Positions 1 through 15,725 of a DNA stretch of 24,000 bases are shown in pieces (within the stretch, counting starts at the first letter, position 1; each line of letters opens with the position of its first letter). The translations under genes and the position numbers were made by a program. Origin of the DNA: Bacillota bacterium (GTDB lineage: Bacteria; Bacillota; Clostridia; Peptostreptococcales; Thermotaleaceae). Location: contig JBMOKU010000015.1 of NCBI GenBank assembly GCA_049324315.1, positions 11,964 through 35,963 of the forward strand, written 5' to 3'. Under the pieces are notes generated by a model. The model saw only the letters and a list, made by a program, of their open reading frames with translations, did no database searches and was not told where the DNA came from.

Positions 1-629
1 TTCCAAGTAAAATAGATATTTCACGAACACACTATTTTAGCGATAAGTCACAAGAATTTAGAAAAGCCGTAGACTATATGGGCGATCCCTTAGAATCTGA
101 AAGGATATATATTCATAATGCAGGTTCAGGTCACAAAGGGAAATTCTCATTTTTGACGAATATTGCAGATATGAATACTAGCAAAAAAGAACTTGTTTTT
201 GTAAATAATGACTCTACTAAAACCATTGCCTTGATTGGACCCGATGGTTCCAATAGTGATTTAATAGGGGATTCGGATGTGATTATATATAATCTGGATG
301 ATCTTGATCTTAATACAACCAACGATGAAACCATCAAAGGCATCATCATTACCAAAGGAGATGTTATCCTTAGAGGTAAGCTTAACTATTATGGAACAAT
401 TATAGCAGAGAAAGATATTAACTTTCAGGATAGTAAAACAAAACGTATTGTCCACGATGAGAACTTTATTTACAAGAAGGTATACGACACACAGAACTTA
501 CGCGACCAGTTCGTTAACAACGGCAGTCCCTTTACTTTCTTATACTCCACAGAGGCCAGAGTTGATGACATAGAGTCCTACATCGTCTATGAGGACCTTA
601 TGAAAATACGTTGGGATATCATTCAATAA
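1..629 (+). CDS. 3' portion of a larger ORF truncated by the left window edge; hypothetical protein, probably part of the pilus/pseudopilus cluster
   Basis: The ORF-track start (ATG 78) is probably not the true start. Translating the same frame upstream (codons at 3,6,...,75) gives PSKIDISRTHYFSDKSQEFRKAVDY with no stop, so the frame is open to the window edge. Stop is TAA 627-629. Strand-like repeats are present (GIIITKGDVILRGKLNYYGTIIAEKDINF). No family recognised. Confidence 0.55.
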   Translation, partial: PSKIDISRTHYFSDKSQEFRKAVDYMGDPLESERIYIHNAGSGHKGKFSFLTNIADMNTSKKELVFVNNDSTKTIALIGPDGSNSDLIGDSDVIIYNLDDLDLNTTNDETIKGIIITKGDVILRGKLNYYGTIIAEKDINFQDSKTKRIVHDENFIYKKVYDTQNLRDQFVNNGSPFTFLYSTEARVDDIESYIVYEDLMKIRWDIIQ

Positions 630-704: not shown

Positions 705-1169
705 ATGAAAGATCTTTTGAATGAAAATAAGGGATTTACCTTAATTGAGCTTGTGATCGTTATGGCAATAGTAGCGATATTGGCTGTGCTGGTAAAGCCG
801 ACCTTTGGAAAGTCCACATTTGATTTAAAAACACAGTCAATGACGCTTTGCTATGCAATACGAGATGTCCGATTGAGAAATATGACAGAGAGCAATTCAT
901 ATCATATTGTGTTAGAAGAAAATCAATATAGGGTATTAAAAGGTACACAACAAATTCGTAAAACAATTTTGCCCACTGGGTATATACTTGAGGACAATTG
1001 CCCAGATGACGATTCAAGCAGCACGGAAATTCGTTTTAGCAACAACGGAGCGCCAAGTGCATCTGGCACCATCAAGTTTAAAGATATCAATAGAGGCATA
1101 CATATGGAAATAAGAATTGTACCGTCAAGTGGGAGGGTGCTGCTTAGAGATGAGATATTTACGAAGTAA
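705..1169 (+). CDS. Type IV minor pilin / pseudopilin, GspH/FimT(FimU)-like, with prepilin N-terminal cleavage/methylation motif
   Basis: Class III signal MKDLLNENKG|FTLIELVIVMAIVAILAVLV (Gly-1, Phe+1, Glu+5, about 20-aa hydrophobic helix). The C-terminal part follows the GspH/FimT-type pattern (AIRDVRLRN..., EIRFSNNGAPSASGTIKF, MEIRIVPSSGRVLL). Start is ambiguous: ATG 705 (used) or the in-frame GTG 696 from the ORF track. Neither has a strong SD. Confidence 0.85.
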   Translation: MKDLLNENKGFTLIELVIVMAIVAILAVLVKPTFGKSTFDLKTQSMTLCYAIRDVRLRNMTESNSYHIVLEENQYRVLKGTQQIRKTILPTGYILEDNCPDDDSSSTEIRFSNNGAPSASGTIKFKDINRGIHMEIRIVPSSGRVLLRDEIFTK

Positions 1170-1710
1170 TAGAAAAGGCTTTACCCTTGTAGAATTAATC
1201 GTCGTTATAGGAATTATCGGAATCGTTGTCAGTACCATCGGAACATTTTTGGTCTCAAACGTCAAAACCTTTCATTATGCCGATGATCAGATGGAGGTTC
1301 AATACCAAGCTCAGATAGCCATGAACGAATTGGTGGACAGAGTTGTTGAGGCTGAGGGGATTGAGTCAATAGCCTATGTGGGGGCAACTTCAACCATAAA
1401 TGAAATTGTGTTTAGAATTTTTACCAACAAAAAATATATTAAATATGAATATGACCGCAGCAGTACCATAAGAAATCTAAAAAGGGGAGAAGTGGAAGGT
1501 GAAAGTGTACCTCAAATTGCTATTGATAATATTACTACAAACCAATATGCCATGTACGTGGAGAATTGTCAGATAACTTTTTTGCCATCATCAGCTTCTG
1601 GTCCAGCAGACGCGGCAGGCATTCAAATCACTATAACCACCAAAAAAAACAATGTGTCTGTAATGCTGACAAACGAAGTATACTTTCGGAATTGGGAGCC
1701 TTCCCCATAG
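1150..1710 (+). CDS. Type IV minor pilin / pseudopilin (PilW/GspJ-like by pattern) with prepilin N-terminal motif
   Basis: MRYLRSNRKG|FTLVELIVVIGIIGIVVSTIG (Gly-1, Phe+1, Glu+5). The segment after the helix (QMEVQYQAQIAMNELVDRVVEAEG) resembles PilW/GspJ-type minor pilins. ATG 1150 gives a 10-aa basic leader, the same length as the upstream pilin. The ORF-track start 1117 is a TTG that adds 11 atypical residues. GGGAGGG at 1131-1137 lies 12-13 nt upstream, which is long-ish spacing. The gene overlaps the upstream pilin gene by 20 nt. Confidence 0.8.
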   Translation: MRYLRSNRKGFTLVELIVVIGIIGIVVSTIGTFLVSNVKTFHYADDQMEVQYQAQIAMNELVDRVVEAEGIESIAYVGATSTINEIVFRIFTNKKYIKYEYDRSSTIRNLKRGEVEGESVPQIAIDNITTNQYAMYVENCQITFLPSSASGPADAAGIQITITTKKNNVSVMLTNEVYFRNWEPSP

Positions 1711-1796: not shown

Positions 1797-4700
1797 ATGA
1801 AAAAGGTATTAAGCTGGGTCATGATTTTTATGATGGTAATAGCTGCAGTACCTCATGTTGGCTTTGCTGGTAATGGCAATAATAGTAACAATGCACCGCC
1901 TGAAGAAATTCAAGAATTACACAATATCAAATATACTATCAAAGATTCCAACGGAAATAATATTAATGGCGTAACCGCAAAGTTTTACATTTATAAAGAA
2001 ACAGGTAATGTGGATATTGAATTTGTACTAGAAAATACAACCAGCAGCGATATAAGTGACTGGGTCTTACAGTGTACGTTACCAGGTTTGTATCGGAACG
2101 GTGATGGGAATATACCAATCATTTACAATGGTCATACAGGAAATACTCCTGGTAAAAACGTTGTAGGAGAATACTTGGGCAGCTTTCAATCAACGTTTGA
2201 ACCTAAGAGAAACAAAAATGCCACCCTTTATGCAAAGAATACTTTTACTTTTATTGGTCAGTATAATGGGGAAATGAATCAAACAATTCAATTGGATGAT
2301 GTCATTACCAATGCTGTCCGAAGTGCCAACGCCCAATACAACCTAGGAGATTTCGGAACGATTGAATATCGCGTTAGTGGTAACGCTGTGAATCTACCAT
2401 CGGAGATTATCGGACAAACGCCAAAGGAGATTGTTCTGGTAATTGATACATCTGGAAGTATGGATTGGGATATTAACGGAAATGAAACGTCAAATAATAA
2501 TAATAAAAGAATTACCTATATGAAAACTGCTGCAAAGAACTTTGTTGATCGATTTGAAAATCAAGCAAATGTAAAAATAGGTATTGTGTCCTATGATTAT
2601 GAAGCAACCCTTGAATCAGAGTTGAAATCGACAACATCATATTCTAATTCTTTGAAGTCAACTATAGATAGTTTAAGTGCTAATGGAGGCACAAATACTG
2701 GTGACGGATTAAGAATGGCTTATTGGTTATTAAAGAATTCTCCAAATCTTGATGCACAAAAGTATATTGTGTCATTGACAGATGGTGATCCTACTTTTAG
2801 AACAATTGTAGATAAAAATAATATACTTAATGATTATTATAGCTGGTTTAGATACTACTCAAATTATGATGATTACTGGCCATATACAAGTGAAAATTTT
2901 AAGTCCCACACTTCAAATTCAAGTAGTAATATTTTTATAGCAGGTACTAGTAATCCTATAGATCGGTTAAAAGTGTTTACAAAGAATAATAGAGAAAATG
3001 TATTTCAAAAGGGACATAATCAATGGAATGAAGAAAATGAAAGATGTTTACAGTATGCTGAAGAAATTGGAGAAATGATTAAGGATGAAGGGAATTTTAG
3101 CTCCTATGTCATTGGTTTTTCAAATGGTGTAAGTAGTGATAATCTTCAGAGAATGGGATTGGCCAGTGGTGCCGATGAGATCGCACCGGGAAGAAACTAC
3201 GCCTATGCAAATACGGGTAATGATCTTGGTGCCATTTATGCAGCCTTTGCTGACGAAATAATCAATCAGGTGCCATTGGAAAATGCTCAGTTTAGTGAAC
3301 TATTGCCTGAAGGTATCGATGTCGATACAGCAAATATTCCACAGGGTTTCAGTGCAGTTAAGGAAAACGGAAGATGGCATGTGATCGGTACATGGGACGA
3401 TTTAGTATTAACACGTCAAGATAACGGAACCTATCAAATAGAAGAATCCGTCAAGAGCTTACCGGTGATATTCAACAGAACGGGTGCCTTCAATTTTAGT
3501 AATCAATCGGCCTCTTTGGCATATAATGTAGATGGTTCGAACGATACAAAAACCGTGCTTTTCTCTGAATTAAACATAAATGTTGTGCTTACCGGTTCCT
3601 ATAATATCTTAGAGATAACAGACAGCGGAGAGTCAGATATTGCACCTTTTATCAGCCAAGGAAGTAACATAGAGCTTACTACCCTTAGTATGAAGAAATT
3701 TGTAGCATTAAGAGAAGCACTGGACGGAAAATATGATGTCATCTACATGGGAAGCGGAGAATATGATCCAACTTCTGTAATGGAATTTGACAGGAGCACA
3801 AAGGAAAAAAGGGCAGCCGCACATGCTACAAAAGGTATCATGAATGATATTACCAATCTGAAAGCCGATGAGATTATTCATGACTTCATTAATAAAGGAC
3901 AACCTGTAATTTTACATAATGATATTTTCAATCATAACGATAGCAACTTATATGCTAGGTTTAATCCGTTTAGATCATCTGGTCGTAATAATGTAAGGAT
4001 TGTAACCTCGGCCCAGGAGGCTTTTCCGGCGATAACGTCACTAGCAAGTACGCTCAATAGGCCTGAAATATCATTAACGAATAGTCCAATATCTTATGTA
4101 GAGAATAGCAGTCATGTTTATCATGCAGGTGATACGTTGCAGTATCAATTTACAATAGATAATCAAGAAGTGCTATCAGAAGACTTAACAGCTAATTTGT
4201 ATATTGACAGAAACTTCAACAAAAATTTTGAGTCGGATGAGCTTGTCGCTGCGAATAATGCTTCCAATGGTTCAGTCTCATATACGCTGCCGGGAGGCTA
4301 TTCTACGATTCATTATTGGATGTTAGAGGTCGTCGGCAACAACTCAGGTTTAAAAGATTATAAAACCGGTGTTTATCGTTTTAGAGACATCAAGACAGTC
4401 GTAAAGGTCCTTCAGGTAAGAAATAGTGGTACGAGCTTGAACAATACGAACCAGTTTAATCAAAACTATCTACACACGGATGATTATGATATCCAAATAG
4501 ATGTCGTAAACATGAATGAGTTTAATAAAGTAAATAGCGAATATGGATACAGTGTTTTGAACGGAAAATATGATATGGTTATCTTCGGATTCCAAGATTC
4601 TTACGGGGACGGAGGAATAAGCAATCAAGCCGTGGCTGAAGTTGAGCGATTTATACAGACAGGCCAAAGTACGATGTTAACCCATGACACACTGATAAAT

Positions 4701-6767
4701 ACCAACTCATCACCCAAATTTATAAACTATCTGATGGACGAAGCAGGACAGTTAAACGAACTTCACAATTTAGGCTTCAGTGCACCACAGGTAACGACGG
4801 AAACAGCAAAAGTAAATGAAGGCATTCTTACCCAATATCCTTTCATTCTCGATGATAATATTAGAATTAATCAAACCCATGATCAGTACTATACGCTTAA
4901 TCTAGAAGATGAAGATGTAATCGTATGGTATAATCTAAGAGGCGGAAACAGGGATATTGAAGATAGTTGGTACCACTATTATACCTACTCAAAAGGTAAT
5001 GTTACCTATTCAGGCACTGGACATACAAATACCAATTTCCCCGATGAAGAACAGAAATTGTTTGTCAATACCATGTATAGAGCATTCCTCAGTTCTAATC
5101 ACAACCCGGAGATCAATGTTATAAGTCCTAATGCTGCTACAGATAAGGTAGTCGTTTCCAATAAAACCATACGCGTTGAATATACAGTGGAGGATTATGA
5201 CCCGTTAGACAGTGAAATTGATACGGAAGTTTGGATTGAGGACCAAAAAGTTTATGAGCAAACAGTAGCAAATGGAACCACGATTAATAGATCATTTAAT
5301 GATTACAATATTGAGGGTAATACGGTTGACATCAGGATAATCGCCGTGGATACAAGGGATGCAAGGGCAGTAGAAGAGATCAGTTTACCGATTCATGGAG
5401 ATATCAGTCTAAATGCTGAAAGCAAGCTTGTTAAAAGAGGGGATACCGTTCAATTAACAGCCTCGATTACACCTGAGTTTGCAACGCATCAAGATATTAA
5501 CTGGACAAGCACTAATAATGATATTGTTTCTATTAGCGGAACTGGATCTGTTGTTAATCTACATGCCACAAATGTAGGAATTGTCGATATAACTGCTGCT
5601 ACTGCTGATGACGAGGCGGACTGTAATGTAATCGTTGGTGATGTCACCATACCTGATACAACCATCGAATATGGCAGTACAACCGACATTCTAGCCAGTA
5701 TTGACTTGCCTAATGGTATTAGCTATGATTCGATACAGTGGAGCAGTGACAACACAAGTGTTGTATCGGTAACAGGGAATGGTGAATCAGCTTCATTACA
5801 AGGAATTTCCATTGGCAAAGCAAATGTTACCATCACTGTAACTATAGACGGAGAAACTATTCGTGATCAGGCACTAATCACCGTTGCCGATAGGATAGGA
5901 CCATCGATAACGATTGATACACCGATTATGGGTGACAATATCATCGATAGCAGTGAAAAAAGCAATGTTACCATTAGCGGAACAACCGATGAAGGAGCGA
6001 CTGTTACGGTTGAAATCAGAGACGAAAACGGCAATTCGGTAACATCAGCACAAGTAACAGCTGATGATAGTGGCGATTATGTAGTTACGGGTATCGATAT
6101 CCGTACACTGGAAGACAGCTTACTTACAATTATTGCAACAGCTACAGATGACGCTGGAAATCAGTCTTCATTAGAGAAGGTCGCGAACATCATATCAAGT
6201 ATCAAAATTGTCAGAACCAATGGAGGCAGCTCTGTTTCTGTAGCACCCTTTGCAAACGGTAAGTACGGCGTAATGAATCAAGATGAAGTTATTCAAATTG
6301 TGGATACAGCCGGATCTAATACACAAAAGCTCTATAACGGAAAGGTTCTAGTCAAAATAGAAATTGGGCTGGAGCATGAAGTTGAAAAGCTTACAGTAAA
6401 TCTAACGGATACTTCTACCGATATTGCACCACAATTCACCTATAACTTTGTTGAATTGAAAAAGAAGGGCACCGCTGAAGACACTTACGATAACAGCTTC
6501 AACAGTGATAACACTAAGAGCGTTGCAATAGAAAATGGCAAGGATATCGTATTAAGCTCTACAGCTTCCAGATATCAACCGGGTATCTATTATGTTATCC
6601 TTTCTGTAAATGTAAATAACATTAAAGAGGCTGATATCAGCAATGCAACGTATGATTTGGAAATTGAAGATGTCATAGCTGAAATATCATCCAGTGAAGT
6701 ATATCATCATCCTCAAACGAATAATGCAATTCAAATCCAAATCGTTCAATTACCAAATATACTATAA
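1797..6767 (+). CDS. Giant (1,656 aa) secreted multidomain vWA-domain protein; putative pilus-associated adhesin
   Basis: Strong SD AAAAGGAGGGA (1781-1791) precedes ATG 1797. Sec-type signal peptide MKKVLSWVMIFMMVIAAVPHVGFA|GNG; it is not a prepilin leader. Domain order: unknown N-domain, vWA with MIDAS, two [ThuA-like + Ig-like] modules, two Big_2 domains, another Ig-like domain, and an unknown ~200-aa C-terminus. No LPXTG, C-terminal TM, SLH or wall-binding repeats seen (C-terminus ...IQIVQLPNIL). Confidence 0.9.
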   Translation: MKKVLSWVMIFMMVIAAVPHVGFAGNGNNSNNAPPEEIQELHNIKYTIKDSNGNNINGVTAKFYIYKETGNVDIEFVLENTTSSDISDWVLQCTLPGLYRNGDGNIPIIYNGHTGNTPGKNVVGEYLGSFQSTFEPKRNKNATLYAKNTFTFIGQYNGEMNQTIQLDDVITNAVRSANAQYNLGDFGTIEYRVSGNAVNLPSEIIGQTPKEIVLVIDTSGSMDWDINGNETSNNNNKRITYMKTAAKNFVDRFENQANVKIGIVSYDYEATLESELKSTTSYSNSLKSTIDSLSANGGTNTGDGLRMAYWLLKNSPNLDAQKYIVSLTDGDPTFRTIVDKNNILNDYYSWFRYYSNYDDYWPYTSENFKSHTSNSSSNIFIAGTSNPIDRLKVFTKNNRENVFQKGHNQWNEENERCLQYAEEIGEMIKDEGNFSSYVIGFSNGVSSDNLQRMGLASGADEIAPGRNYAYANTGNDLGAIYAAFADEIINQVPLENAQFSELLPEGIDVDTANIPQGFSAVKENGRWHVIGTWDDLVLTRQDNGTYQIEESVKSLPVIFNRTGAFNFSNQSASLAYNVDGSNDTKTVLFSELNINVVLTGSYNILEITDSGESDIAPFISQGSNIELTTLSMKKFVALREALDGKYDVIYMGSGEYDPTSVMEFDRSTKEKRAAAHATKGIMNDITNLKADEIIHDFINKGQPVILHNDIFNHNDSNLYARFNPFRSSGRNNVRIVTSAQEAFPAITSLASTLNRPEISLTNSPISYVENSSHVYHAGDTLQYQFTIDNQEVLSEDLTANLYIDRNFNKNFESDELVAANNASNGSVSYTLPGGYSTIHYWMLEVVGNNSGLKDYKTGVYRFRDIKTVVKVLQVRNSGTSLNNTNQFNQNYLHTDDYDIQIDVVNMNEFNKVNSEYGYSVLNGKYDMVIFGFQDSYGDGGISNQAVAEVERFIQTGQSTMLTHDTLINTNSSPKFINYLMDEAGQLNELHNLGFSAPQVTTETAKVNEGILTQYPFILDDNIRINQTHDQYYTLNLEDEDVIVWYNLRGGNRDIEDSWYHYYTYSKGNVTYSGTGHTNTNFPDEEQKLFVNTMYRAFLSSNHNPEINVISPNAATDKVVVSNKTIRVEYTVEDYDPLDSEIDTEVWIEDQKVYEQTVANGTTINRSFNDYNIEGNTVDIRIIAVDTRDARAVEEISLPIHGDISLNAESKLVKRGDTVQLTASITPEFATHQDINWTSTNNDIVSISGTGSVVNLHATNVGIVDITAATADDEADCNVIVGDVTIPDTTIEYGSTTDILASIDLPNGISYDSIQWSSDNTSVVSVTGNGESASLQGISIGKANVTITVTIDGETIRDQALITVADRIGPSITIDTPIMGDNIIDSSEKSNVTISGTTDEGATVTVEIRDENGNSVTSAQVTADDSGDYVVTGIDIRTLEDSLLTIIATATDDAGNQSSLEKVANIISSIKIVRTNGGSSVSVAPFANGKYGVMNQDEVIQIVDTAGSNTQKLYNGKVLVKIEIGLEHEVEKLTVNLTDTSTDIAPQFTYNFVELKKKGTAEDTYDNSFNSDNTKSVAIENGKDIVLSSTASRYQPGIYYVILSVNVNNIKEADISNATYDLEIEDVIAEISSSEVYHHPQTNNAIQIQIVQLPNIL
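2424..3266 (+). other. von Willebrand factor A (vWA) domain with complete MIDAS, inside the giant CDS (aa ~210-490)
   Basis: IVLVIDTSGSMD contains DxSxS at nt 2445-2459. ANGGTNTGDGL supplies the MIDAS Thr (nt 2685-2708). YIVSLTDGDPT supplies the MIDAS Asp (nt 2778-2792). Later beta-strand SSYVIGFSNG and closing helix DLGAIYAAFADEII. An ~80-aa aromatic-rich insertion lies between the TDGDP strand and the following helix. Confidence 0.85.
3582..5396 (+). repeat. Internal protein-level tandem duplication: two [ThuA/GATase1-like + Ig-like beta-sandwich] supermodules (aa ~596-865 and ~867-1200)
   Basis: Paired motifs appear in the same order in both copies: ILEITDSG / VLQVRNSG; LDGKYDVIYMGSGEY / LNGKYDMVIFGFQDSY; FINKGQPVILHNDIF / FIQTGQSTMLTHDTL; NRPEISLTNSP / NHNPEINVISPN. 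Only the second copy carries the full C-terminal half (TQYPFILDD..INQTHDQYYTL, VIVWYNL, YTYSKGNVTYSGTGHT, EEQKLFVNTMYRAF). That motif order mirrors ThuA-like domains. The fold assignment is inference. Confidence 0.55.
5403..5885 (+). other. Two tandem bacterial Ig-like group 2 (Big_2) domains inside the giant CDS
   Basis: First: LVKRGDTVQLTASITPEFATHQDINWTSTNNDIVSISGTGSVVNLHATNVGIVDITAAT. Second: IEYGSTTDILASIDLPNGISYDSIQWSSDNTSVVSVTGNGESASLQGISIGKANVTITVT. Both show the classic Big_2 signature (G.t.qL.a...P......v.W.SSn..vatV...G.vta...G.a.Ita). A further Ig-like domain follows at ~5895-6176 (GPSITIDTP...VTISGTTDEGATVTVEI...ATATDDAGN). Confidence 0.8.
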
Positions 6768-6772: not shown

Positions 6773-6812
6773 AGACAAAGAAATGGAAAAATCCATTTCT
6801 TTGTCTCTTTTG
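6773..6812 (+). terminator. Rho-independent terminator after the giant adhesin gene
   Basis: Perfect 15-bp stem AGACAAAGAAATGGA (6773-6787) / TCCATTTCTTTGTCT (6792-6806). Loop is AAAA. Tail is CTTTTG. Confidence 0.8.
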
Positions 6813-6838
6813 AAGGATTTTTTAACTATTTGTATAAT
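6810..6838 (+). promoter_or_regulatory. Candidate sigma-A type promoter for the ComFB-family gene
   Basis: -35 TTGAAG (6810-6815), 17-nt spacer, consensus -10 TATAAT (6833-6838). It lies directly after the terminator and ~25 nt upstream of the comFB SD. Confidence 0.4.
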
Positions 6839-6872
6839 ATTTCTATTATTAAGTTTAGAACGGAGGTTGTAT

Positions 6873-7151
6873 ATGTTAAAAAATTATATGGAAGACGTGG
6901 TGGATCACATTCTACCATCTATGCTAAAAGCCTTTAATAACATCTGTAAATGTGAGAAATGCATCAATGATATTAAAGCTATTACTTTAAACCATTTAAA
7001 GCCTCATTATGTGGTTACGGAAAAGGGTGAGATATACACCAGAATCAATGAGATGTATATACAGTTTGAAACAGATGTGATGAAGGCTATTATTGATGCC
7101 ATCGCCATTGTTTCGAAATATCCAAGACATGAATTAGAAAAGAGTAAATGA
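6873..7151 (+). CDS. comFB: ComFB-family protein (late competence development protein ComFB fold), 92 aa
   Basis: MLKNYMEDVVDHILPSMLKAFNNICKCEKCINDIKAITLNHLKPHYVVTEKGEIYTRINEM...AIAIVSKYPRH matches the ComFB family pattern as I recall it (CxCxxC, DIkA.aLN.L.P.YvvtekGe.y, IVSk.PRH). ATG 6873 is preceded by GGAGG (6862-6866). The ORF-track start 6783 lies inside the terminator hairpin and is rejected. Confidence 0.8.
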   Translation: MLKNYMEDVVDHILPSMLKAFNNICKCEKCINDIKAITLNHLKPHYVVTEKGEIYTRINEMYIQFETDVMKAIIDAIAIVSKYPRHELEKSK

Positions 7152-9183: not shown

Positions 9184-9654
9184 ATGAATTATCTTTATGA
9201 GAGAGTTTCCTACTTAAGAGGTTTGGCAGAAGGAATGGAAATTAGTGACAAATCAAAGGAAGGAAAGCTGCTTTTAAACATTATTGATGTACTAGAAGAT
9301 TTTGCAGACTCCTTGGACGAATTAAATGGTCAAGTTGCTGAAATCGATGAATATGTGGAAGCTGTTGATGAGGATCTGGCAGATCTGGAAGACGAAATTT
9401 ACGGAGAACTGGATGAAGAAGATGACGAGGACTTCGAAGATGATGAAGATATTGATTTCGTTGAGGTCGATTGTCCAAATTGTGGTGAGACCATTTATCT
9501 TGATGAAGATTTAATTTATGATGAAGACGAAGCAGAAGTAATCTGCCCAAGCTGTCATGAAAAACTACATCTAGAAGAAGGCTGCTGTGATTGTGGCTGC
9601 GAAGAATGTGATGATGAAGAAGATGAGCATCATGAAGGCGGCTGCTGCCATTAA
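9184..9654 (+). CDS. Highly acidic zinc-ribbon protein with Cys/His-rich C-terminal tail (uncharacterised family)
   Basis: SD AAAGGAGGG before ATG 9184. Helical N-domain MNYLYERVSYLRGLAEGMEI... An almost pure D/E stretch spans aa ~55-95. Zinc ribbon CPNCG-x20-CPSCH covers nt ~9472-9555. The tail EEGCCDCGCEECDDEEDEHHEGGCCH has 7 Cys and 3 His in 26 aa. A strong terminator follows. From memory it resembles proteins labelled 'CD1247 N-terminal domain-containing'; this is unverified. Confidence 0.8.
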   Translation: MNYLYERVSYLRGLAEGMEISDKSKEGKLLLNIIDVLEDFADSLDELNGQVAEIDEYVEAVDEDLADLEDEIYGELDEEDDEDFEDDEDIDFVEVDCPNCGETIYLDEDLIYDEDEAEVICPSCHEKLHLEEGCCDCGCEECDDEEDEHHEGGCCH

Positions 9655-9802: not shown

Positions 9803-10852
9803 ATGAATGATTCAAAAGATAAAAACTTTGTAAGTAAAAATACGCCTATGCATTATATGAAAAATGAAATATTGGAAGCATTACCTTTAAAAATCAGAGA
9901 ATTATTACGGTATGTGACAGACAGTCGCATGAAAGATATTGAAGAAATCAGATTTCGTATTCTCAAACCACTGCTTCTTAGCTTAGGTAAAAGAGAGTAC
10001 TTTTTAAATGTAGACGGTGGACTTGATCGTTGTATTGAAAAAGCTTATATCGTGACAAAGGATGATATCGAAAATGCTTTTCAGTTCATAACAGATTATT
10101 CTGTATATACGCTGGAAGAAGATATCCGTAATGGCTTTGTCACCATGAAAGGTGGTCATCGCGTAGGCATATGCGGCCGCGTCATAAGAAATGGTCCTTA
10201 TATAAGAACAATAAAGGATATATCAGGACTAAATATCCGAATTTCTAAGGAAAAAATAGGGGTATCTGATCACATTATGAAAAACCTCATAGGACCTTCA
10301 CATTTTTGTCATAACACTTTGATTATTTCGCCCCCACAATGTGGTAAAACCACGCTGCTCAGGGATATTGTCAGAAACCTAAGCAATGGTATTCCACAAT
10401 TGAAAGTTAAGGGACTAAAAGTGGGTGTTGTCGATGAACGTTCGGAAATTTGCGGCTGTTACCAAGGAGTACCACAGAATGACGTAGGTATGCGAACAGA
10501 TATTTTAGATGCATGTCCGAAGGCAGAAGGTATGATGATGCTAATTCGCTCTATGTCGCCAGAAGTTATTGTGACGGATGAAATAGGGAAGAAAGAGGAT
10601 GTGTCAGCCATTGAAGAAGCGCTGCATGCAGGTGTAAAGGTAATCACGACAGTCCATGGAAGCAGCTTTCACGAGCTGTTGGATCGGCCCCATGTCAGTC
10701 GTTTGTTAGAAAGCAGTGTCTTCGAAAAGTACATTATTTTGTCTAATCAGCCGAAAGTAGGAACGATAAAGGAAATCATCGATCATAAGAAAATAATGCA
10801 GTCTACGTCAAATGGCAGGGGGTGGATCCATGATGATCAAGTTTCTGGTTAG
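9803..10852 (+). CDS. spoIIIAA: Stage III sporulation protein AA (secretion-type AAA+ ATPase of the SpoIIIA-SpoIIQ channel)
   Basis: Walker A SPPQCGKTT and Walker B VIVTDEIG. Motifs EEIRFRILKPLLL and HRVGICG are typical of SpoIIIAA. SD AAAGGAGGGA (9788-9797). It is the first of eight co-linear spoIIIA genes. Confidence 0.9.
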   Translation: MNDSKDKNFVSKNTPMHYMKNEILEALPLKIRELLRYVTDSRMKDIEEIRFRILKPLLLSLGKREYFLNVDGGLDRCIEKAYIVTKDDIENAFQFITDYSVYTLEEDIRNGFVTMKGGHRVGICGRVIRNGPYIRTIKDISGLNIRISKEKIGVSDHIMKNLIGPSHFCHNTLIISPPQCGKTTLLRDIVRNLSNGIPQLKVKGLKVGVVDERSEICGCYQGVPQNDVGMRTDILDACPKAEGMMMLIRSMSPEVIVTDEIGKKEDVSAIEEALHAGVKVITTVHGSSFHELLDRPHVSRLLESSVFEKYIILSNQPKVGTIKEIIDHKKIMQSTSNGRGWIHDDQVSG

Positions 10853-11351
10853 TTTGGTCATTATATTGTCTTCCACCGCCATAGGCATGCTGCTTTCCCA
10901 TAGATATACACTTAGGGTTAAATGCTTGAAATCCTTGCATCATGCCATGCAAATGCTGGAGGTAGAAACACTATACGCTTCAAAACCACTGCCTGTAGCG
11001 ATGAAAACCATAGCAGAACGCTCGTATCCGTCTATTTCAGTTATATTTCATAAGATGCACACATTATTACTTGGAAGGATGGGTATCACGGTTTCAGAGG
11101 CATGGTACCAATCAGTAGATCAGTATGCAGTTGATCTTCCATTAAACAAGGAAGATATTGACGTGCTAAAAGAGTTTGGAAAAATGCTTGGCACAACAGA
11201 TAGAGAATACCAAGAGAAAAATTTTCATCATCTCTATTTCTTGTTAAAAAAGCAAGAAGAAGATGCAGTTTCTCAAAAATGTAAAAATGAAAAATTGTAC
11301 AAAAGTCTAGGTATCTTGACTGGTATAGGAATCGTTATTGTTTTGATTTAA
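10830..11351 (+). CDS. spoIIIAB: Stage III sporulation protein AB
   Basis: MMIKFLVSLVIILSSTAIGMLLS starts with an N-terminal TM segment and the protein ends in a C-terminal TM segment. Length 173 aa fits SpoIIIAB. ATG 10830 is preceded by AGGGGGTGGA (10817-10826). The ORF-track start 10812 lies upstream of that SD. The gene overlaps spoIIIAA by 23 nt. Confidence 0.85.
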   Translation: MMIKFLVSLVIILSSTAIGMLLSHRYTLRVKCLKSLHHAMQMLEVETLYASKPLPVAMKTIAERSYPSISVIFHKMHTLLLGRMGITVSEAWYQSVDQYAVDLPLNKEDIDVLKEFGKMLGTTDREYQEKNFHHLYFLLKKQEEDAVSQKCKNEKLYKSLGILTGIGIVIVLI

Positions 11352-11380
11352 AAGATATTTACCTAAGGGGGAAATTGGAC

Positions 11381-11578
11381 ATGAACATCGATTTGATTTT
11401 TAAGATTGCTGCGATTGGTATCTTAGTCACTGTATTAAATCAAGTACTTGTACACTCGGGCAGAGAAGAACAGGCTACCATGACCACCATCGCGGGCATT
11501 GTCATTGTGCTGCTGATGGTGATTCAACTAATTAACAATTTATTTACCACCGTAAAGACAATGTTTCAGCTTTACTAA
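11381..11578 (+). CDS. spoIIIAC: Stage III sporulation protein AC (small two-TM protein)
   Basis: MNIDLIFKIAAIGILVTVLNQVLVHSGREEQA... aligns with the SpoIIIAC pattern (IFqIagvGI...L...gk.e.a). ATG 11381 lies 8 nt after AAGGGGGA (11365-11372). The ORF-track TTG 11375 is too close to the SD. Confidence 0.85.
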   Translation: MNIDLIFKIAAIGILVTVLNQVLVHSGREEQATMTTIAGIVIVLLMVIQLINNLFTTVKTMFQLY

Positions 11579-11600
11579 AACATAATAAGGTGAGGTTACC

Positions 11601-11987
11601 ATGGAAATATTCAAAATTGTCGGTATTGGGATTGTAGCCACGATATTATCTTTAATGCTTAAGGAAGAAAAGCCAGAGATATCACTGCAGATTAGTATCG
11701 TAACTGGTCTGATCATATTCATTTTTATCGTCACTAGGTTAGCATCGGTTTTAGAGGTGCTGAATCTATTTGCAAGAAAAATCGATATCGATCTGGTTTA
11801 CATTACAACCATTTTTAAAATAGTCGGTATTGCTTACGTTACAGAATTTGGAGCACAGATTTGTAGAGATGCTGACGCAGGTGCTATTGCTTCGAAAATT
11901 GAACTGGCTGGAAAGGTATTGATTATGATACTTGCTATACCTATTTTGCTAGCCTTATTAAATTTAATTGTACGACTAATGCCATAG
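11601..11987 (+). CDS. spoIIIAD: Stage III sporulation protein AD
   Basis: MEIFKIVGIGIVATILSLMLKEEKPEISLQISIVTGLIIF... and ...IVGIAYVTEFGAQICRDAGAGAIASKIELAGKVLI are typical of SpoIIIAD. SD AAGGTGAGG (11587-11595). Confidence 0.9.
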   Translation: MEIFKIVGIGIVATILSLMLKEEKPEISLQISIVTGLIIFIFIVTRLASVLEVLNLFARKIDIDLVYITTIFKIVGIAYVTEFGAQICRDADAGAIASKIELAGKVLIMILAIPILLALLNLIVRLMP

Positions 11988-11990
11988 GAT

Positions 11991-13178
11991 GTGAATATGA
12001 TGAAAAAGCTTGTGATAATAACGATGATTATTTGTCTGTTTTCTACGCCATCCTATGCCTTCGATGAGGATGCTGAAACACAATCAATCAGTGATGAATT
12101 AATCATGGAACAGCTGCAGAATATTGACACTGAAGAATTAGAAGAAATGATGGACGAAATTAATGCAGATATAGAAGAATATCTTCCCAAAATGAATATG
12201 GAAAACATTGTTTTTTCCCTTATAAAGGGTGAAGATGTTTTTTCCCTTAAGGATATATTCGATGGCCTGCTAAAATACTTGTTTAAAGAAGTTATTGCAA
12301 ATGCTGGACTGCTGACAAAAATTATTGTTCTTGCCGTTATATGTGCTTTTTTGAGCAATCTATCCAATGCATTTGAAAGTGATTCCGTTGCAAAATTGGC
12401 ACACGCTGTATGTTATTTGGTTATTGTCGCCATAGCTATTCAAAGCTTTACAATAGCCATCAGTACGGGAAGCCGTCTGATAAGCGATATGGTAACTTTC
12501 ATGCAGGCATTATTACCTGTGCTTCTAACGCTATTGATGGCAATGGGTGGATTAACAGCAACAGCAATCTTTCAACCAATCATTTTCGCATCGTTAGGAT
12601 TTATTAGCTCCTTAATGAAAGATTTTGTACTTCCGCTCATTTTCTTTTCGTCTATACTGTCCATTGTTAATCATCTGTCAGAAAAAATTCAGGTTTCAAA
12701 GCTTGCATCATTACTGAAGCAAATCGGTGTTGCTGCCATTGGCTGCTTATTAACAGTATTTGTCGGAATTATTACCATACAAGGAGTGGCCGCTTCTACA
12801 ACAGACGGCGTAACCCTTCGAACCGCCAAATTTGCTGTTGGCTTTATCCCTGTGGTTGGTGGATTCGTCACAGATGCTGTTGATGCAGTTTTAGGATGTT
12901 CTCTATTACTTAAAAATGCTATAGGAGGGTTTGGTTTATTTGCTCTAGCACTTCTGGTAATTATACCACTTCTTAAGATAGCTACACTCATTCTTATTTA
13001 TAAAGTTGCCAGTGCAATGATTGAACCTATTACAGATAATCGTTTGGTTGACTGCTTAAATGATTTAAGCAATTCCTTAACCATGTTATTCGGAACCGTT
13101 CTTTCTGTGGCCATTATGTTTTTCATGGCAATAACCATCATTATAAGCGCAGGAAATATAACGGTCATGATGAGGTAG
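11991..13178 (+). CDS. spoIIIAE: Stage III sporulation protein AE (polytopic membrane protein with signal peptide)
   Basis: N-terminal signal MMKKLVIITMIICLFSTPSYA, an acidic linker, then about 7 TM segments with SpoIIIAE-type motifs (FMQALLPVLLTLLMAMGG, RTAKFAVGFIPVVGG). Start is uncertain among GTG 11991, ATG 11997 and ATG 12000. Confidence 0.88.
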   Translation: MNMMKKLVIITMIICLFSTPSYAFDEDAETQSISDELIMEQLQNIDTEELEEMMDEINADIEEYLPKMNMENIVFSLIKGEDVFSLKDIFDGLLKYLFKEVIANAGLLTKIIVLAVICAFLSNLSNAFESDSVAKLAHAVCYLVIVAIAIQSFTIAISTGSRLISDMVTFMQALLPVLLTLLMAMGGLTATAIFQPIIFASLGFISSLMKDFVLPLIFFSSILSIVNHLSEKIQVSKLASLLKQIGVAAIGCLLTVFVGIITIQGVAASTTDGVTLRTAKFAVGFIPVVGGFVTDAVDAVLGCSLLLKNAIGGFGLFALALLVIIPLLKIATLILIYKVASAMIEPITDNRLVDCLNDLSNSLTMLFGTVLSVAIMFFMAITIIISAGNITVMMR

Positions 13179-13826
13179 GTGATAAGCTTGGCAGCGTTTA
13201 TAAGAACATGGATTTTAAATATTGCAACGGTTATCATCTTCATCTCATTTATTGAAATTTTGCTACCCAATAGCAGTATGAAAAAATATATCAAAATGAT
13301 TGTAGGCCTTCTCGTAATGCTAGTCGTACTCAATCCCGTCATTGAATTAATGAATGGAAAAATTGACATTGAAAATGAGATTATGCGTACTTCCTTACTT
13401 ATCGATGAAACCTCTCTTACCATTGCTAAAGATAATCTAGGGGGACTTCAGGAAAAGCAAATGCTGCAGTATTACAAAGCAAAGGTTGAAGGGCATATTA
13501 AAGATAAAATGTATAGGGATTTTGATATGGCAGTAGAAAAAGTTACGGTCGTCATTGATGAAAATAGCAAAAGCGATAAATTTGGTCAAATCCAAGGGAT
13601 TGAAATATCTATTGCAAGTATGGAAAAGGACCACAGCATAGAAAAGGACATACAACCGGTTACTGGTATCCATATTATTATTGGCAAAGATAATATAGCA
13701 AACGAAGAAGATGAAAATTTTGAAGAAGACAATAAAAAAATTCAAGAAATAAAAAATAGTATTTCCAGCTTCTATGATGTGAATGATAGGAATATACATA
13801 TTAATGTACGTGAGACAAGTCATTAA
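13179..13826 (+). CDS. spoIIIAF: Stage III sporulation protein AF
   Basis: AAFIRTWILNIATVIIFISFIEILLPNSSMKKYIKMIVGLLVMLVVLNPVIELM parallels the B. subtilis SpoIIIAF N-terminus (..EWLTTIVLFILFAIVIDMLLPSSSMQKYAKMV..). Start is either GTG 13179, which abuts the spoIIIAE stop, or TTG 13188, which is better spaced from GAGGT at 13172-13176. Confidence 0.85.
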   Translation: MISLAAFIRTWILNIATVIIFISFIEILLPNSSMKKYIKMIVGLLVMLVVLNPVIELMNGKIDIENEIMRTSLLIDETSLTIAKDNLGGLQEKQMLQYYKAKVEGHIKDKMYRDFDMAVEKVTVVIDENSKSDKFGQIQGIEISIASMEKDHSIEKDIQPVTGIHIIIGKDNIANEEDENFEEDNKKIQEIKNSISSFYDVNDRNIHINVRETSH

Positions 13827-13843
13827 AGCGAGGGGGAAAATCT

Positions 13844-14446
13844 ATGAAAATAATTGAAAAAATCAAACAGATGATTTTGAACAGAAATTATAAACAGACA
13901 ATATACAATCTCACTGCCATCATTATTATCTGTGTCATTGTTTTATTGTCTTGGGATACACTGTTTGGCGGTAATCTCATGAAAGATATCTCAAATGCTA
14001 CTGAGAAAACCGATGGCGCTAAGAGTGAAAGTAAAAATGAACAAATACAGAATACCCAATATAAAGACACTGTAGAAGTACAATTAAAAAGCATTCTACA
14101 TGAAATTAAAGGCGTAGGTGAAGTAGAAGTCATGGTTACCTATGAAAGCAGTTCAGAAGTAATACCTGCATCGAATATGACGCGGTCCAATCAGATAACT
14201 GAGGAAAAGGACGCACAAGGTGGAAGCCGAACAACAACCCAGGAAGAAACAACGCAGAATATTGTTACTGTCAGTGGGGATGACAAAGAATTAATTATCT
14301 TGAAAGAAATCAAGCCTCAAATTAAAGGTGTGGTCGTGGTGGCTGAGGGTGCTGGAAATATTGAAGTGAAGAATGCATTAGTTGAGGCTGTTAAAACAAT
14401 CTTTCAAATTCCGGCACATAAAGTAATGGTTTATGAAAAAAAATAA
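13844..14446 (+). CDS. spoIIIAG: Stage III sporulation protein AG (ring-forming channel component)
   Basis: N-terminal TM segment. The C-terminal region IKGVVVVAEGAGNIEVKNALVEAVKTIFQIPAHKVMVYEKK matches the SpoIIIAG C-terminus pattern. SD GAGGGGGA (13831-13838). Confidence 0.85.
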   Translation: MKIIEKIKQMILNRNYKQTIYNLTAIIIICVIVLLSWDTLFGGNLMKDISNATEKTDGAKSESKNEQIQNTQYKDTVEVQLKSILHEIKGVGEVEVMVTYESSSEVIPASNMTRSNQITEEKDAQGGSRTTTQEETTQNIVTVSGDDKELIILKEIKPQIKGVVVVAEGAGNIEVKNALVEAVKTIFQIPAHKVMVYEKK

Positions 14447-14464
14447 ATCTTGGGGGGAAGCTGT

Positions 14465-15196
14465 ATGTTTCGTATGAAAAGAAAAAATATTTTCTTATCG
14501 CTGCTTGTGATGGTGTTGTTTGTAATTAGCTATTTTAATTATGCAATTAATAAATATTCTTTACTGGAAACATCTTCTGATTTTGAAAGATATGAAGAAA
14601 ACAAATTGGCAGAAGTTACGATGGACACGCTGAATGAAGAACTGCTTGAAGAAGAGATGAAAGACGACGCTGGGAGCAATGTGCAAGTAGATGAAGAAAA
14701 TCAAATGGAACAAAATGAACAAGAAACAGAACAATCGGCTTTAGACGTGAATGTAGTTGACAGTACCCAGAGTGTTGTAGGCAATGTTGTAACAGAGGCC
14801 AGCACAAATATTGAAAGTAACATAACAAGCAATAAAAATATGAAAAAAAGCAATTACTTTATCGAAGCAAGGTTAAATACTTCCATTGAGAGAGAACGAA
14901 TGGTATCTATGTTGAATGAAATCATCGATAATGACAATACAGACGATGAGAACAGAAAAGAAGCCAACAATGCTAAAATGCGATTGATTGATATTATGAA
15001 TAAAGAAAAAATTGTAGAAAACTTAATAAAGGCAAAAGGCTTTGAAGATGCATTGGTGTTTATAACGGAAAACTCTGTCAATGTGATTGTGGAGACAGAA
15101 AAGCTAACGGATTCTGATGTAGCAAAAATACTTGATATCGTTACTCGGGAAACAAAAGTTCCCTTGCTCAATGTAAAAATATTAAATAAATTCTAG
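14465..15196 (+). CDS. spoIIIAH: Stage III sporulation protein AH (SpoIIQ-interacting YscJ/FliF-like component)
   Basis: MFRMKRKNIFLSLLVMVLFVISYFNY is an N-terminal TM anchor. An acidic/Gln-rich linker follows, then a C-terminal domain (ALVFITENSVNVIVETEKLTDSDVAKILDIVTRE). It is the last gene of the operon. ATG 14465 follows GGGGGGAAG (14452-14460). The ORF-track TTG 14450 is rejected. Confidence 0.8.
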   Translation: MFRMKRKNIFLSLLVMVLFVISYFNYAINKYSLLETSSDFERYEENKLAEVTMDTLNEELLEEEMKDDAGSNVQVDEENQMEQNEQETEQSALDVNVVDSTQSVVGNVVTEASTNIESNITSNKNMKKSNYFIEARLNTSIERERMVSMLNEIIDNDNTDDENRKEANNAKMRLIDIMNKEKIVENLIKAKGFEDALVFITENSVNVIVETEKLTDSDVAKILDIVTRETKVPLLNVKILNKF

Positions 15197-15202
15197 TTTG
15201 GT

Positions 15203-15231
15203 TTGTAAATAAAAACTTAATTTGGTATAAT
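15203..15231 (+). promoter_or_regulatory. Candidate sigma-A promoter with extended -10, upstream of asp23
   Basis: -35 TTGTAA (15203-15208), 17-nt spacer, TGg-TATAAT (TG at 15223-15224, -10 at 15226-15231). Confidence 0.45.
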
Positions 15232-15275
15232 ATTCATTGAAGATTTTATTCCTAATATTGGGGGGTGTAGGAATC

Positions 15276-15674
15276 ATGGTAGATAACAAACTAGAGGGTC
15301 CAGATTATGGTCAAATAAAAATCGCAGATGAAGTCGTTGGAATCATAGCCGGATTAGCAGCTACAGAGGTGCCTGGCGTTGCTGGTATGAGCGGTGGTAT
15401 AGCGGGTGGAATTGCAGAAATGTTAGGTCGAAAAAACCTTTCTAAAGGCGTTAAAGTAGAAGTTGGAGAAAAAGAAGCTGCTATTGATTTATACATAATT
15501 GTTGATTATGGTGTCAAGATTCCTGATGTTTCTTGGAAAATTCAAGAAAGTGTAAAAAAAGCCATAGAGACAATGACCGGTCTAAAGGTTGTTGAAGTGA
15601 ATATACATGTTCAAGGTGTGAATATTGAGAAGGACGGAAAAGAAGATGATCCTGCCATTCTTAGAGTTAAATAG
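15276..15674 (+). CDS. asp23: Asp23/Gls24 family envelope stress (alkaline shock) protein
   Basis: IKIADEVVGIIAGLAATEVPGVAGMSGG...KGVKVEVGEKEAAIDLYIIVDYGVKIPDV...VKKAIETMTGLKVVEVNIHVQGV is the canonical Asp23 pattern. ATG 15276 lies 8 nt after GGGGGTG (15261-15267). The ORF-track TTG 15237 falls within the predicted promoter/5'UTR. Confidence 0.9.
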   Translation: MVDNKLEGPDYGQIKIADEVVGIIAGLAATEVPGVAGMSGGIAGGIAEMLGRKNLSKGVKVEVGEKEAAIDLYIIVDYGVKIPDVSWKIQESVKKAIETMTGLKVVEVNIHVQGVNIEKDGKEDDPAILRVK

Positions 15675-15687
15675 ATGATAATATTGA

Positions 15688-15725
15688 CTAACCCTCTGAC
15701 TTGTCAGAGGGTTAGTTTAAATTTT
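15688..15725 (+). terminator. Rho-independent terminator after asp23
   Basis: Perfect 13-bp inverted repeat CTAACCCTCTGAC (15688-15700) / GTCAGAGGGTTAG (15703-15715). Followed by TTTAAATTTT. Confidence 0.7.

Follow-up and report, generated by a model that had tools for sequence, protein, structure and literature searches.

We found that a Gram-positive type IV pilus operon ends with the gene for a secreted protein of 1,656 amino acids (aa), and that the conserved alpha/beta body of this protein is the hallmark of a pilus-locus-linked family across Bacillota. This operon context is decisive for interpreting the protein, and it had been overlooked in the initial annotation. On balance, the protein is probably a Sec-exported, non-pilin, pilus-displayed modular adhesin of a Clostridia-type type IV pilus, comparable in its working to PilY1/PilC of Gram-negatives or to modular pilins, though with a different carrier. 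The adhesion of Gram-positive type IV pili is poorly understood. To our knowledge, the modular pilins of Streptococcus sanguinis are the only characterised adhesive subunits of these pili. No PilY1 counterpart for monoderms is described in PMC8179133 or PMC6916266.

Genomic context and export signal

The window (the whole 24,000-nucleotide stretch of DNA that was analysed; all coordinates below refer to its + strand) opens with the 3' end of a PilX-like minor-pilin-type gene that is cut by the window edge (1..629). This assignment was made by synteny with a related locus, L005: the product matches the C-terminal portion of a 747-aa L005 protein at 35% identity (E 3e-32), and that protein itself showed weak PilX_N and DUF2572 matches. 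Next comes the gene of a GspH/ComGD-like minor pilin (705..1169) with the cleavage/methylation motif G/FTLIE (slash, cleavage site), scoring 33.7 bits for N_methyl and 33.8 bits for TIGR02532. The gene of a second minor pilin (1150..1710; MRYLRSNRKG/FTLVE...; 33.2 and 26.9 bits for the same two models) overlaps the preceding one by 20 nt. After the 1,656-aa gene, a ComFB-family gene (6783..7151; ComFB, 88.9 bits) starts 16 nt past the stop codon, a position that is kept in L005. Members of the ComFB family have been described as c-di-NMP receptors (PMC12448109). A scan for promoters and terminators gave signals that were not above the shuffled expectation.

The 1,656-aa ORF (1797..6767) runs from an ATG start in a single uninterrupted frame, with a ribosome-binding site, AAAGGAGGG, upstream. 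Both the ORF and the domain order given in the initial annotation were borne out. The protein begins with a signal peptide (aa 1-24, 1797..1868) ending ...VGFA/GNG, which had been recognised previously and which we found to be of the Sec type and not of the prepilin type. The prepilin motif G-FTLxE is absent from the N-terminus, MKKVLSWVMIFMMVIAAVPHVGFA/G, neither N_methyl (Pfam) nor TIGR02532 matched the protein, and aa 1-27 form its sole hydrophobic window. The protein thus shows a trait of PilY1/PilC, namely that of a non-pilin with a Sec signal encoded beside minor pilin genes, and it was classed as a secreted, non-pilin accessory protein of the pilus operon.

Domain architecture

An Asn/Gly-rich N-terminal domain (aa 25 to ~180, 1869..2336), presumed to be the outermost head module, had been left unassigned and stayed an orphan here: Pfam and PDB sequences returned noise only, and no relative was found among 148 proteins or 80 loci. 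It is followed by a vWA unit (aa 181-595, 2337..3581), delimited by a VWA_2 match, the MIDAS and a homologue alignment over aa 180-595. VWA_2 (PF13519; cut-off 27 bits) matched aa 212-330 with 56.5 bits, in agreement with the earlier vWA call, and the MIDAS (DxSxS...T...D) is complete, with D217, S219, S221, T299 and D329 invariant in 10 homologues. The unit contains an aromatic-rich insert (aa ~335-410) with beta-rich halves flanking it, and the segment after the vWA core (aa ~411-595) aligned with its counterpart in every vWA homologue. The top match among PDB sequences was the vWA module of S. sanguinis PilB (7b7p, E 5e-11). By analogy to this pilin, the head, composed of N-domain and vWA with its intact metal site, is predicted to bind a ligand in a manner dependent on Mg2+ or Mn2+.

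The body consists of module A (aa 596-866, 3582..4394), a trimmed alpha/beta domain followed by an Ig-like domain, and module B (aa 867-1200, 4395..5396), a fuller alpha/beta domain resembling ThuA and likewise followed by an Ig-like domain. The two had been proposed to be duplicates of each other. Self-BLAST of the protein found no internal repeats, and the duplication is visible at the profile level only. Since profile-profile alignment of A with B by hhalign gave a probability of 96% (E 3.5e-9, 218 columns), and since the AF2 model of aa 596-1200 (pLDDT 91, pTM 0.90) has the layout alpha/beta-Ig-alpha/beta-Ig, the duplication is real. The description of these modules as ThuA-like held in part: a match to the ThuA profile (PF06283) exists, but at 18.5 bits it lies below the curated cut-off of 33.4. 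One relative (P0058) reached 27.4 bits over the same profile stretch, and we take the GN.TYSGTGH stretch that ends module B to resemble the conserved C-terminal motif of ThuA. Membership in DUF5057 (PF16480) is secure, with 76 bits at aa 683-964 over the whole profile (1-378) against a cut-off of 27.9; the DUF5057 model covers part of A, the Ig domain of A and part of B. The invariant residues of module B include T962-H963-D964, H1028, Q1030, E1037-D1038 and G1075-H1076, and T-H-D, H, Q, E-D, G-H, E and N are invariant across 60 sequences. So many invariant polar residues point to a possible function in ligand binding or catalysis, which a plain adhesin model leaves unexplained.

Behind the body lie two Big_2 Ig-like domains (aa 1203-1363, 5403..5885), which passed the cut-off with 48.4 bits in 2 stretches, and a Big_6/Ca-tandemer-like Ig domain (aa 1367-1460, 5895..6176; NF033510, E 3.6e-10), which passed the Big_6 cut-off (32.2 versus 27.6 bits) with aa 1367-1468 scanned alone. 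Both assignments match those made before, and the Big_2 and Big_6 domains would serve as spacers of a stalk.

The C-terminal domain (aa 1466-1656, 6192..6764) had been described as a region of no recognisable motif. It has no Pfam match, and AF2 modelling added a beta-sandwich fold (mean pLDDT 74, core 80-94), made up of a low-confidence linker (1476-1506), a sandwich of ~145 aa (1508-1650) and a free tail. Fold searches with this model returned generic sandwich matches only, with a weak resemblance to the ACE19/Cna collagen-binding sandwich. The domain is 39% identical to the C-terminus of a syntenic orthologue (P0059), and an exhaustive search with a profile of the query-type C-terminus had as its only matches the query itself, this orthologue and one VCBS-repeat protein, the last of which we regard as a compositional or beta-repeat match. 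A word-indexed search with a mixed C-terminal alignment found two fragments.

The protein ends in ...QLPNIL-COOH, and its last five residues (LPNIL, 6750..6764) belong to a phi-P-x-phi-x tail class. Tails of this class (P at -4, hydrophobic at -2) occur in 32 of 94 relatives with non-redundant tails and differing middle regions, among them vWA-only proteins that lack DUF5057 and are encoded at the same operon position. An HMM built on the LPDLF-type C-terminal domain did not score the query, and hhalign between the two C-terminal subfamilies gave a probability of <1%; we therefore claim for these two types a common tail and strand pattern, and not homology. Because the tail is common to relatives with differing middles, the initial guess that the C-terminus is a docking element gains indirect support, and we infer such a role for it, with LPNIL as a candidate docking or recognition signal. 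The Bacilli-type DUF5057 proteins end differently, in [KRL][YW]-COOH, and therefore no single docking element is kept across the whole family.

Pilus linkage, proposed display and competing readings

Relatives of the alpha/beta body were collected by an alignment-based genome scan, which yielded loci from 80 Bacilli and Clostridia species; scanning genomes with the 1,656-aa protein alone as query found nothing. A prepilin ORF lay within 10 kb of the DUF5057 gene in 75 of the 80 species, a PilB/C/T/M/N match in 74, and one or both of these in 76. All seven loci that we examined manually (L001-L007, where L002 carries the same protein as L001) were type IV pilus loci, and the relative directly follows minor pilins in five distinct ones (L001, L003, L005, L006 and L007). 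The order in L006 and L007 is pilB-pilC-pilin-pilM-pilN-(pilO)-pilin-PilX-like-pilin-X. Body and tail recur among the relatives, while the heads are vWA, double vWA, PA14, discoidin or none. The evidence for a pilus linkage of the DUF5057 family is therefore strong. The searchable literature contained no mention of DUF5057.

The DUF5057 proteins of Bacillaceae and Paenibacillaceae (~1,140 aa) are 40-47% identical to the query over aa 596-1200 and likewise have a Big_2 stalk, a Sec signal peptide and a pilus locus. Neither the N-domain nor the vWA unit is present in them, and they end in a polar linker followed by [KRL][YW]-COOH in place of the beta-sandwich and LPxIL tail. Their gene order also differs, in that the minor pilins are divergent and an ankyrin-repeat gene is often present. 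In databases, they are annotated as 'surface protein containing Ig-like domains' or 'YjdB'.

From these observations we infer that the 1,656-aa protein is displayed on the pilus, possibly at its tip, and acts in adhesion. Its plan would be that of a variable adhesive head, a conserved body formed by the DUF5057-type tandem alpha/beta+Ig unit, an Ig stalk and a C-terminal carrier. The last beta-sandwich and the free ...LPNIL-COOH tail would attach to the complex that the adjacent PilX-like protein forms with the minor pilins; the pilus would display the head and, on retracting, pull at it. The generic fold of the C-terminal beta-sandwich counts against this adhesin model, as does the statistically unsupported homology of the C-terminus to LPDLF-type domains. 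The differing tail of the Bacilli-type proteins and the invariant polar residues of module B also weigh against it.

Because members of the DUF5057 family are encoded next to pilus genes in almost all species analysed, the protein is a candidate for the Gram-positive counterpart of PilY1. We advance more tentatively, as a claim that is rather less probable than display itself, the idea that DUF5057 proteins and the vWA-only proteins of the same slot together constitute the missing Gram-positive PilY1 equivalent, a new class of non-pilins displayed on type IV pili via a C-terminal docking code that had not been recognised before. This code would consist of the beta-sandwich and phi-P-x-phi-x-COOH in Clostridia and of [KRL][YW]-COOH in Bacilli, and the ThuA-resembling tandem body would be a conserved unit for ligand binding or force sensing.

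It is unlikely that the protein is cargo of the pilus machine and no part of the pilus. A short pilus would then work as a type II secretion piston that pushes the Sec-exported protein through the thick wall, the released protein would act in adhesion or biofilm, either free or bound to the matrix, and the C-terminal tail would be its export recognition signal. A precedent exists in Clostridium perfringens, where secretion of the Sec-signal vWA protein BsaC depends on PilA3, PilB2, PilC1, PilD and PilM/N/O (PMC11580942). A BsaC-like substrate class is defined by experiment, through dependence on pilins and the assembly ATPase (PMC11580942). BsaC thus represents another way of linking a pilus system and a vWA protein, which counts against the adhesin model. 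The main pil operon of C. perfringens has the order pilO-CPE2280-CPE2279-pilA3-CPE2277 (PMC6958937), with the PilA3 gene immediately upstream of the terminal gene, and a Sec signal peptide without an anchor is also what a cargo protein would have. However, BsaC (70 kDa) is encoded outside the pil operon, in sipW-bsaABC. Co-location with minor pilins that is this tight and this general in the family is more what one expects of structural partners like PilY1, and a long Ig stalk fits display at a distance. Mutation of cpe2277 had no effect on BsaC secretion, which is uninformative on the fate of CPE2277 itself.

Somewhat more doubtful still is the possibility that the ThuA-resembling tandem body is the real effector and the vWA domain optional, the body being an enzyme or a sensor of sugars or polysaccharides that is coupled to pilus function and targets the cell wall, exopolysaccharide or substrate glycans. 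The invariant polar residues of module B argue for such a role, as do the sub-threshold ThuA matches at the same profile positions in two family members. The body is also the sole part conserved in both Bacilli and Clostridia members, and many relatives have no vWA at all. Against this, no catalytic family reached threshold in the body, its profile found 0 matches among PDB sequences, and a Foldseek search of the four-domain model against the PDB gave only long multi-Ig alignments with TM 0.12-0.17. Moreover, vWA-only proteins fill the same operon slot without any such body.

We reject as very improbable the reading of the protein as an ordinary wall-anchored MSCRAMM or sortase-pilus adhesin that lies beside pilus genes by chance. 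Its vWA and Ig-like repeats are a common adhesin composition, and its C-terminal model is weakly like the ACE19/Cna sandwich. Yet no LPXTG-like motif ([LIVN]P.[TSA][GNSA]) occurs anywhere in the 1,656-aa protein, which also has no C-terminal hydrophobic anchor or charged tail and, by Pfam, no SLH or cell-wall-binding repeats, and none of the genes in the window encodes a sortase. The combination of LPXTG-type motif, hydrophobic segment and charged tail that marks a sortase-anchored adhesin is thus absent, in line with the initial statement that this is not an MSCRAMM or sortase-pilus layout. The pilus linkage in 76 of 80 species is not a coincidence and therefore also counts against this reading.

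A fusion or assembly artefact joining a vWA gene to a DUF5057 gene, which the orthologue P0059 (1,246 aa, without N-domain and vWA unit) might suggest and which the initial annotation had named as a concern, can be rejected as very improbable too, since the ORF is uninterrupted, base composition along the gene shows no break, an identical protein ('MAG: DUF5057 domain-containing protein [Bacillota bacterium]' at NCBI) is recorded in the searched protein collection, which drew on NCBI and Logan, and the vWA+DUF5057 layout recurs in independent organisms (P0002, P0003, P0004, P0007-14 and L073), including the complete Oceanirhabdus chromosome of L073.

The linkage in 76 of 80 Bacilli and Clostridia species connects DUF5057, an uncharacterised Pfam family, as a whole with type IV pilus loci, and the MIDAS head, the invariant polar site in module B and the two lineage-specific C-terminal tails are testable elements. 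Display on the pilus, if true, would mean that pilus adhesins have a novel kind of carrier module, and it would open a way into the adhesion, surface sensing and biofilm formation of spore-forming Firmicutes, relatives of pathogens included.

Comparison with known systems

Sortase-pilus tip adhesins such as RrgA and GBS104, and MSCRAMMs, also act in adhesion and have Ig-like domains and a vWA domain whose MIDAS is surrounded by arms, but the 1,656-aa protein lacks their LPXTG sorting signal and has no sortase nearby. With ThuA (PF06283) and its class I glutamine-amidotransferase-like fold, module B shares an in-register match below the curated cut-off; unlike ThuA, the body here lies outside the cell and consists of two tandem copies, each followed by an Ig domain.

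The closest solved vWA relative, S. sanguinis PilB (7b7p), has a complete MIDAS, belongs to a Gram-positive type IV pilus and has both an adhesive role and a function that depends on the MIDAS. Its vWA domain binds host proteins, and the MIDAS is required for twitching motility (PMC8179133). PilB is, however, a bimodular pilin whose signal peptide is of class III and which includes a pilin module, whereas the 1,656-aa protein is four times larger, carries a Sec signal and has no pilin module; the class III signal peptide/N_methyl and pilin module that define a modular type IV pilin are both missing from it. C. perfringens CPE2277 has the same terminal operon position. This gene is still listed as a 'protein of unknown function', its only description.

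The nearest parallel is PilY1/PilC of Pseudomonas, Neisseria and Myxococcus, an adhesin that is not a pilin and associates with the tip of the type IV pilus. Like the 1,656-aa protein, PilY1/PilC is large, Sec-exported, non-pilin and encoded with minor pilins, and it is likewise modular: its N-terminal head varies and may be a vWA domain, and the minor-pilin complex is the presumed binding partner of its conserved part (PMC8179133, PMC7541494). The fusion of a carrier module to effector modules is a concept already described for PilC/PilY1 and modular pilins (PMC8179133). In the 1,656-aa protein, the C-terminal beta-propeller that marks the PilY1/PilC family (IPR008707) gave no Pfam match at E<=1. 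Its host is a monoderm without an outer membrane, and in place of the PilY1/PilC propeller its conserved part is the tandem alpha/beta+Ig body together with the C-terminal ~145-aa beta-sandwich and its short tail.

The giant ORF and its operon

A single long ORF in the window (1797..6767, + strand, ATG start) encodes the 1,656-aa query protein, and a strong ribosome-binding site, AAAGGAGGG, lies immediately 5' of it. The identical NCBI entry is named 'MAG: DUF5057 domain-containing protein [Bacillota bacterium]'. Pfam placed VWA_2 at aa 212-330 (56.5 bits), DUF5057 at aa 683-964 (76 bits), a weak ThuA match at aa 924-1087 (18.5 bits, under the 33.4 cut-off) and two Big_2 stretches starting at aa 1203, while an Ig domain at aa ~1367-1460 rose above the Big_6 cut-off if scanned alone. 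No Pfam family or PDB sequence matched the ~155 aa past the Sec-type signal peptide or the final ~190 aa. The residues of the metal-binding MIDAS site (D217, S219, S221, T299, D329) are all present and are invariant across ten homologues. Together with the hydrophobicity and motif results, these placements show that the domain order read from the sequence in the initial annotation, including its intact MIDAS and unmatched termini, was accurate. The query is a bona fide DUF5057 protein and vWA protein. Its vWA domain carries an insert rich in aromatics (YYSWFRYYSNYDDYWPY..., aa ~335-410, window ~2799-3026), where GC falls to 0.31 and which may be the counterpart of the 'arms' beside the MIDAS in PilB and RrgA.

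The operon context was that of a type IV pilus. Upstream, the window opens within a large PilX-like gene, whose 3' end encodes a product 35% identical to a 747-aa PilX_N/DUF2572 protein from a syntenic locus. Two prepilin genes follow, each bearing a canonical G|FTL[IV]E motif. These minor pilin genes share 20 nt (window 1150-1169; stop 1169, ATG 1150), an overlap that suggests translational coupling. Downstream, a ComFB-family gene (6783-7151, + strand) starts 16 nt past the stop codon of the giant ORF, a position that is kept in the syntenic locus L005 (7856-8119). ComFB proteins have recently been described as receptors for c-di-GMP/c-di-AMP with a regulatory role in pilus-dependent competence and motility (PMC12448109, 10.1101/2023.11.27.568819), and with this gene the pilus operon may carry its own second-messenger regulator. 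Beyond it are pepP and efp, then the spoIIIA operon. The interval separating efp from spoIIIAA encodes a small protein (9184-9654, + strand) that starts with a CD1247 N-terminal domain and whose C-terminus resembles a CxxC zinc ribbon; in L005 a 146-aa gene occupies the same place. The housekeeping and sporulation stretch at 9803-20496 (+ strand) contains most of the spoIIIA operon (AA, AB, an AC/AD-family ORF, AE, AF, an unassigned 200-aa ORF and AH), two Asp23-family genes, nusB, a TsaD-like gene, xseA and a polyprenyl synthetase gene, a set that identifies the host as a spore former within the Clostridia.

Pilus linkage and variable heads

All seven relatives' loci that we inspected by hand were pilus loci. 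L001 and L002 carry the same protein, P0002, in a pilus operon, L001 being the fuller copy. The gene order in L003, L006 and L007 is pilB-pilC-pilin-pilM-pilN-(pilO)-pilin-PilX-like-pilin-X, where X is the relative's gene; L005 follows the window (PilX-like, pilin, pilin-like, X, ComFB, pepP, efp, spoIIIAA), and in L004 (Anoxybacillus) X adjoins divergent minor pilins and pilB/pilT/pilC. Scanning the DUF5057 alignment against one genome per species yielded 80 loci, distributed over Bacilli (Brevibacillus, Aneurinibacillus, Anoxybacillus, Paenibacillus, Cohnella, Jeotgalibacillus, Exiguobacterium) and Clostridia (Oceanirhabdus, Tepidibacter, Peptoclostridium). Within 10 kb of the DUF5057 gene, a prepilin ORF was found at 75 loci, a PilB/C/T/M/N match at 74, and one or the other at 76 of the 80. 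Of the four exceptions, two (L076, L077) are truncated on one side by a contig end. With genomes measuring several megabases, such linkage cannot be chance. DUF5057 is a pilus-locus-linked family. We note that in most Bacilli-type loci (L008-L087) a conserved ~545-aa protein adjoins the minor pilins, followed in Anoxybacillus, Jeotgalibacillus and Rossellomorea by an ankyrin-repeat gene. In L003 (Clostridium) a second large secreted protein of 950 aa with PA14 and Big_13/Big_6 domains follows the DUF5057 gene (13945-16797), so that some pilus operons may hold two accessory adhesin candidates.

The heads of the relatives vary among vWA, double vWA, PA14, F5/8 type C (discoidin) and none. The closest groups to the vWA part of the query were 900-1,000-aa proteins that have two vWA units but lack DUF5057, and ~1,600-2,400-aa proteins with vWA(+PA14)+DUF5057. 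For the DUF5057 part, the closest relatives were Bacilli proteins of ~1,140 aa, which share 40-47% identity with it over aa 596-1200, have Big_2 stalks and lack a vWA domain. The syntenic orthologue P0059 (1,246 aa, ending ...VVQLPQIL) lacks the orphan N-domain and the vWA unit but retains the body and a C-terminal region 39% identical to that of the query, which is therefore a pilus-operon protein variant with a gained head. In P0007-P0014 (Clostridium spp., ~1,600 aa), a 60-100-aa insert right after the MIDAS DxSxS bears repeated CxxC...H motifs (e.g. YCEDCGKW...YCRDCNKW) and looks like tandem zinc ribbons within the vWA domain; the query lacks this insert.

Duplicated body and C-terminal tails

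Self-BLAST of the query was blind to any internal repeat, yet homologue-built profiles of module A (aa 596-866) and module B (aa 867-1200) aligned with 96% probability (E 3.5e-9, 218 columns), and both modules carry the motifs L[ND]GKYD and FI..GQ....HD. A confident AlphaFold2 model of aa 596-1200, made with 60 homologues (pLDDT 91, pTM 0.90), formed one compact body in the order alpha/beta - Ig - alpha/beta - Ig. The duplicated supermodule that had been proposed from the sequence was thus borne out. The Pfam DUF5057 model runs from the middle of the alpha/beta domain of module A through its Ig domain into module B, and is not a structural domain. Module B, the fuller copy, holds the invariant polar residues T962-H963-D964, H1028, Q1030, E1037-D1038, G1075-H1076, E1085 and N1101. 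The 'ThuA-like' label stands for a remote similarity with sub-threshold scores, in which the query (18.5 bits) and its relative P0058 (27.4 bits) match one and the same part of the ThuA profile. Neither fold search confirmed it: Foldseek with the four-domain model returned just long multi-Ig alignments, which were meaningless, and the profile of the body matched nothing among PDB sequences.

AlphaFold2 of aa 1457-1656 (mean pLDDT 74, core 80-94) gave a ~145-aa beta-sandwich (aa 1508-1650) with an unstructured LPNIL tail. Foldseek matched it to generic sandwiches only: ACE19, type I cohesins (TM up to 0.51), TTHA1873, GH123 N-domains and the diphtheria toxin R domain. By sequence this C-terminus is very rare, with one clear relative, P0059, in 1.84 billion representatives, and weak relatives in P0029-P0038. 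Among 94 tail-non-redundant relatives, 32 tails have P at -4 and a hydrophobic residue at -2, most commonly as LPDLF; the chance rate is ~1% by our own estimate (Pro ~4.5% x hydrophobic ~30%). No statistical link joined the query C-terminus to the LPDLF-type domain, yet their strand patterns align. The tail class with P at -4 also takes in vWA-only proteins of the same operon slot, so it follows the slot rather than the middle domains. Another 48 of the 94 end in a Bacilli-type [KRL][YW]-COOH following a polar linker, and in a separate count Y or W was the last residue at 67 of 80 species loci. This ending, a polar G/D/N-rich linker and then [KRL][YW]-COOH (GDRY, TDKY, GWLY and DDKW are examples), is almost universal in Bacilli-type DUF5057 proteins (e.g. 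L004, 10001-13417).

Proposed display on the pilus and known systems

In the best-supported reading, the query would be exported via Sec, join the pilus through the complex that the PilX-like protein would form with the minor pilins, with its C-terminus as the candidate docking element, and then present its putatively adhesive vWA head at a distance on the Ig stalk. The place in the operon, the linkage across the family, the intact MIDAS, the conserved tail and the lack of any other anchor are observed, whereas adhesion, display on the pilus and C-terminal docking are inferred. A 'carrier + effector' design has been described for PilC/PilY1 and modular pilins (PMC8179133), and minor pilins are working partners of PilY1 (PMC7541494). 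As the main rival, the query could be cargo and not a pilus component, since secretion of the C. perfringens vWA protein BsaC requires PilA3 and the assembly machinery (PMC11580942). Second, the conserved body could be an enzyme or glycan sensor, in keeping with its invariant polar site and its resemblance to ThuA. An assembly or fusion artefact was rejected, given the even base composition over the whole giant ORF and the independent recurrence of vWA+DUF5057, in one case on a complete Oceanirhabdus chromosome. A sortase/MSCRAMM protein was likewise rejected: the query has no LPXTG-like motif, and the signal peptide is its sole hydrophobic segment.

For pilus biology, the linkage at the level of the family and the C-terminal tails matter more than the domain list. 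A 2019 review of monoderm type IV pili discussed no candidate adhesins other than modular pilins (PMC6916266). DUF5057 is not mentioned in the searchable literature, and CPE2277, at the same operon position in C. perfringens (operon in PMC6958937), was described as 'a protein of unknown function' (PMC11580942). The query shares its genomic logic and vWA head with PilY1/PilC and modular pilins, but lacks the defining beta-propeller of the former (Pfam scan, C-terminal model) and both the class III signal peptide and the pilin module of the latter. On these grounds we rate it as a putative modular pilus-associated adhesin with a different carrier.
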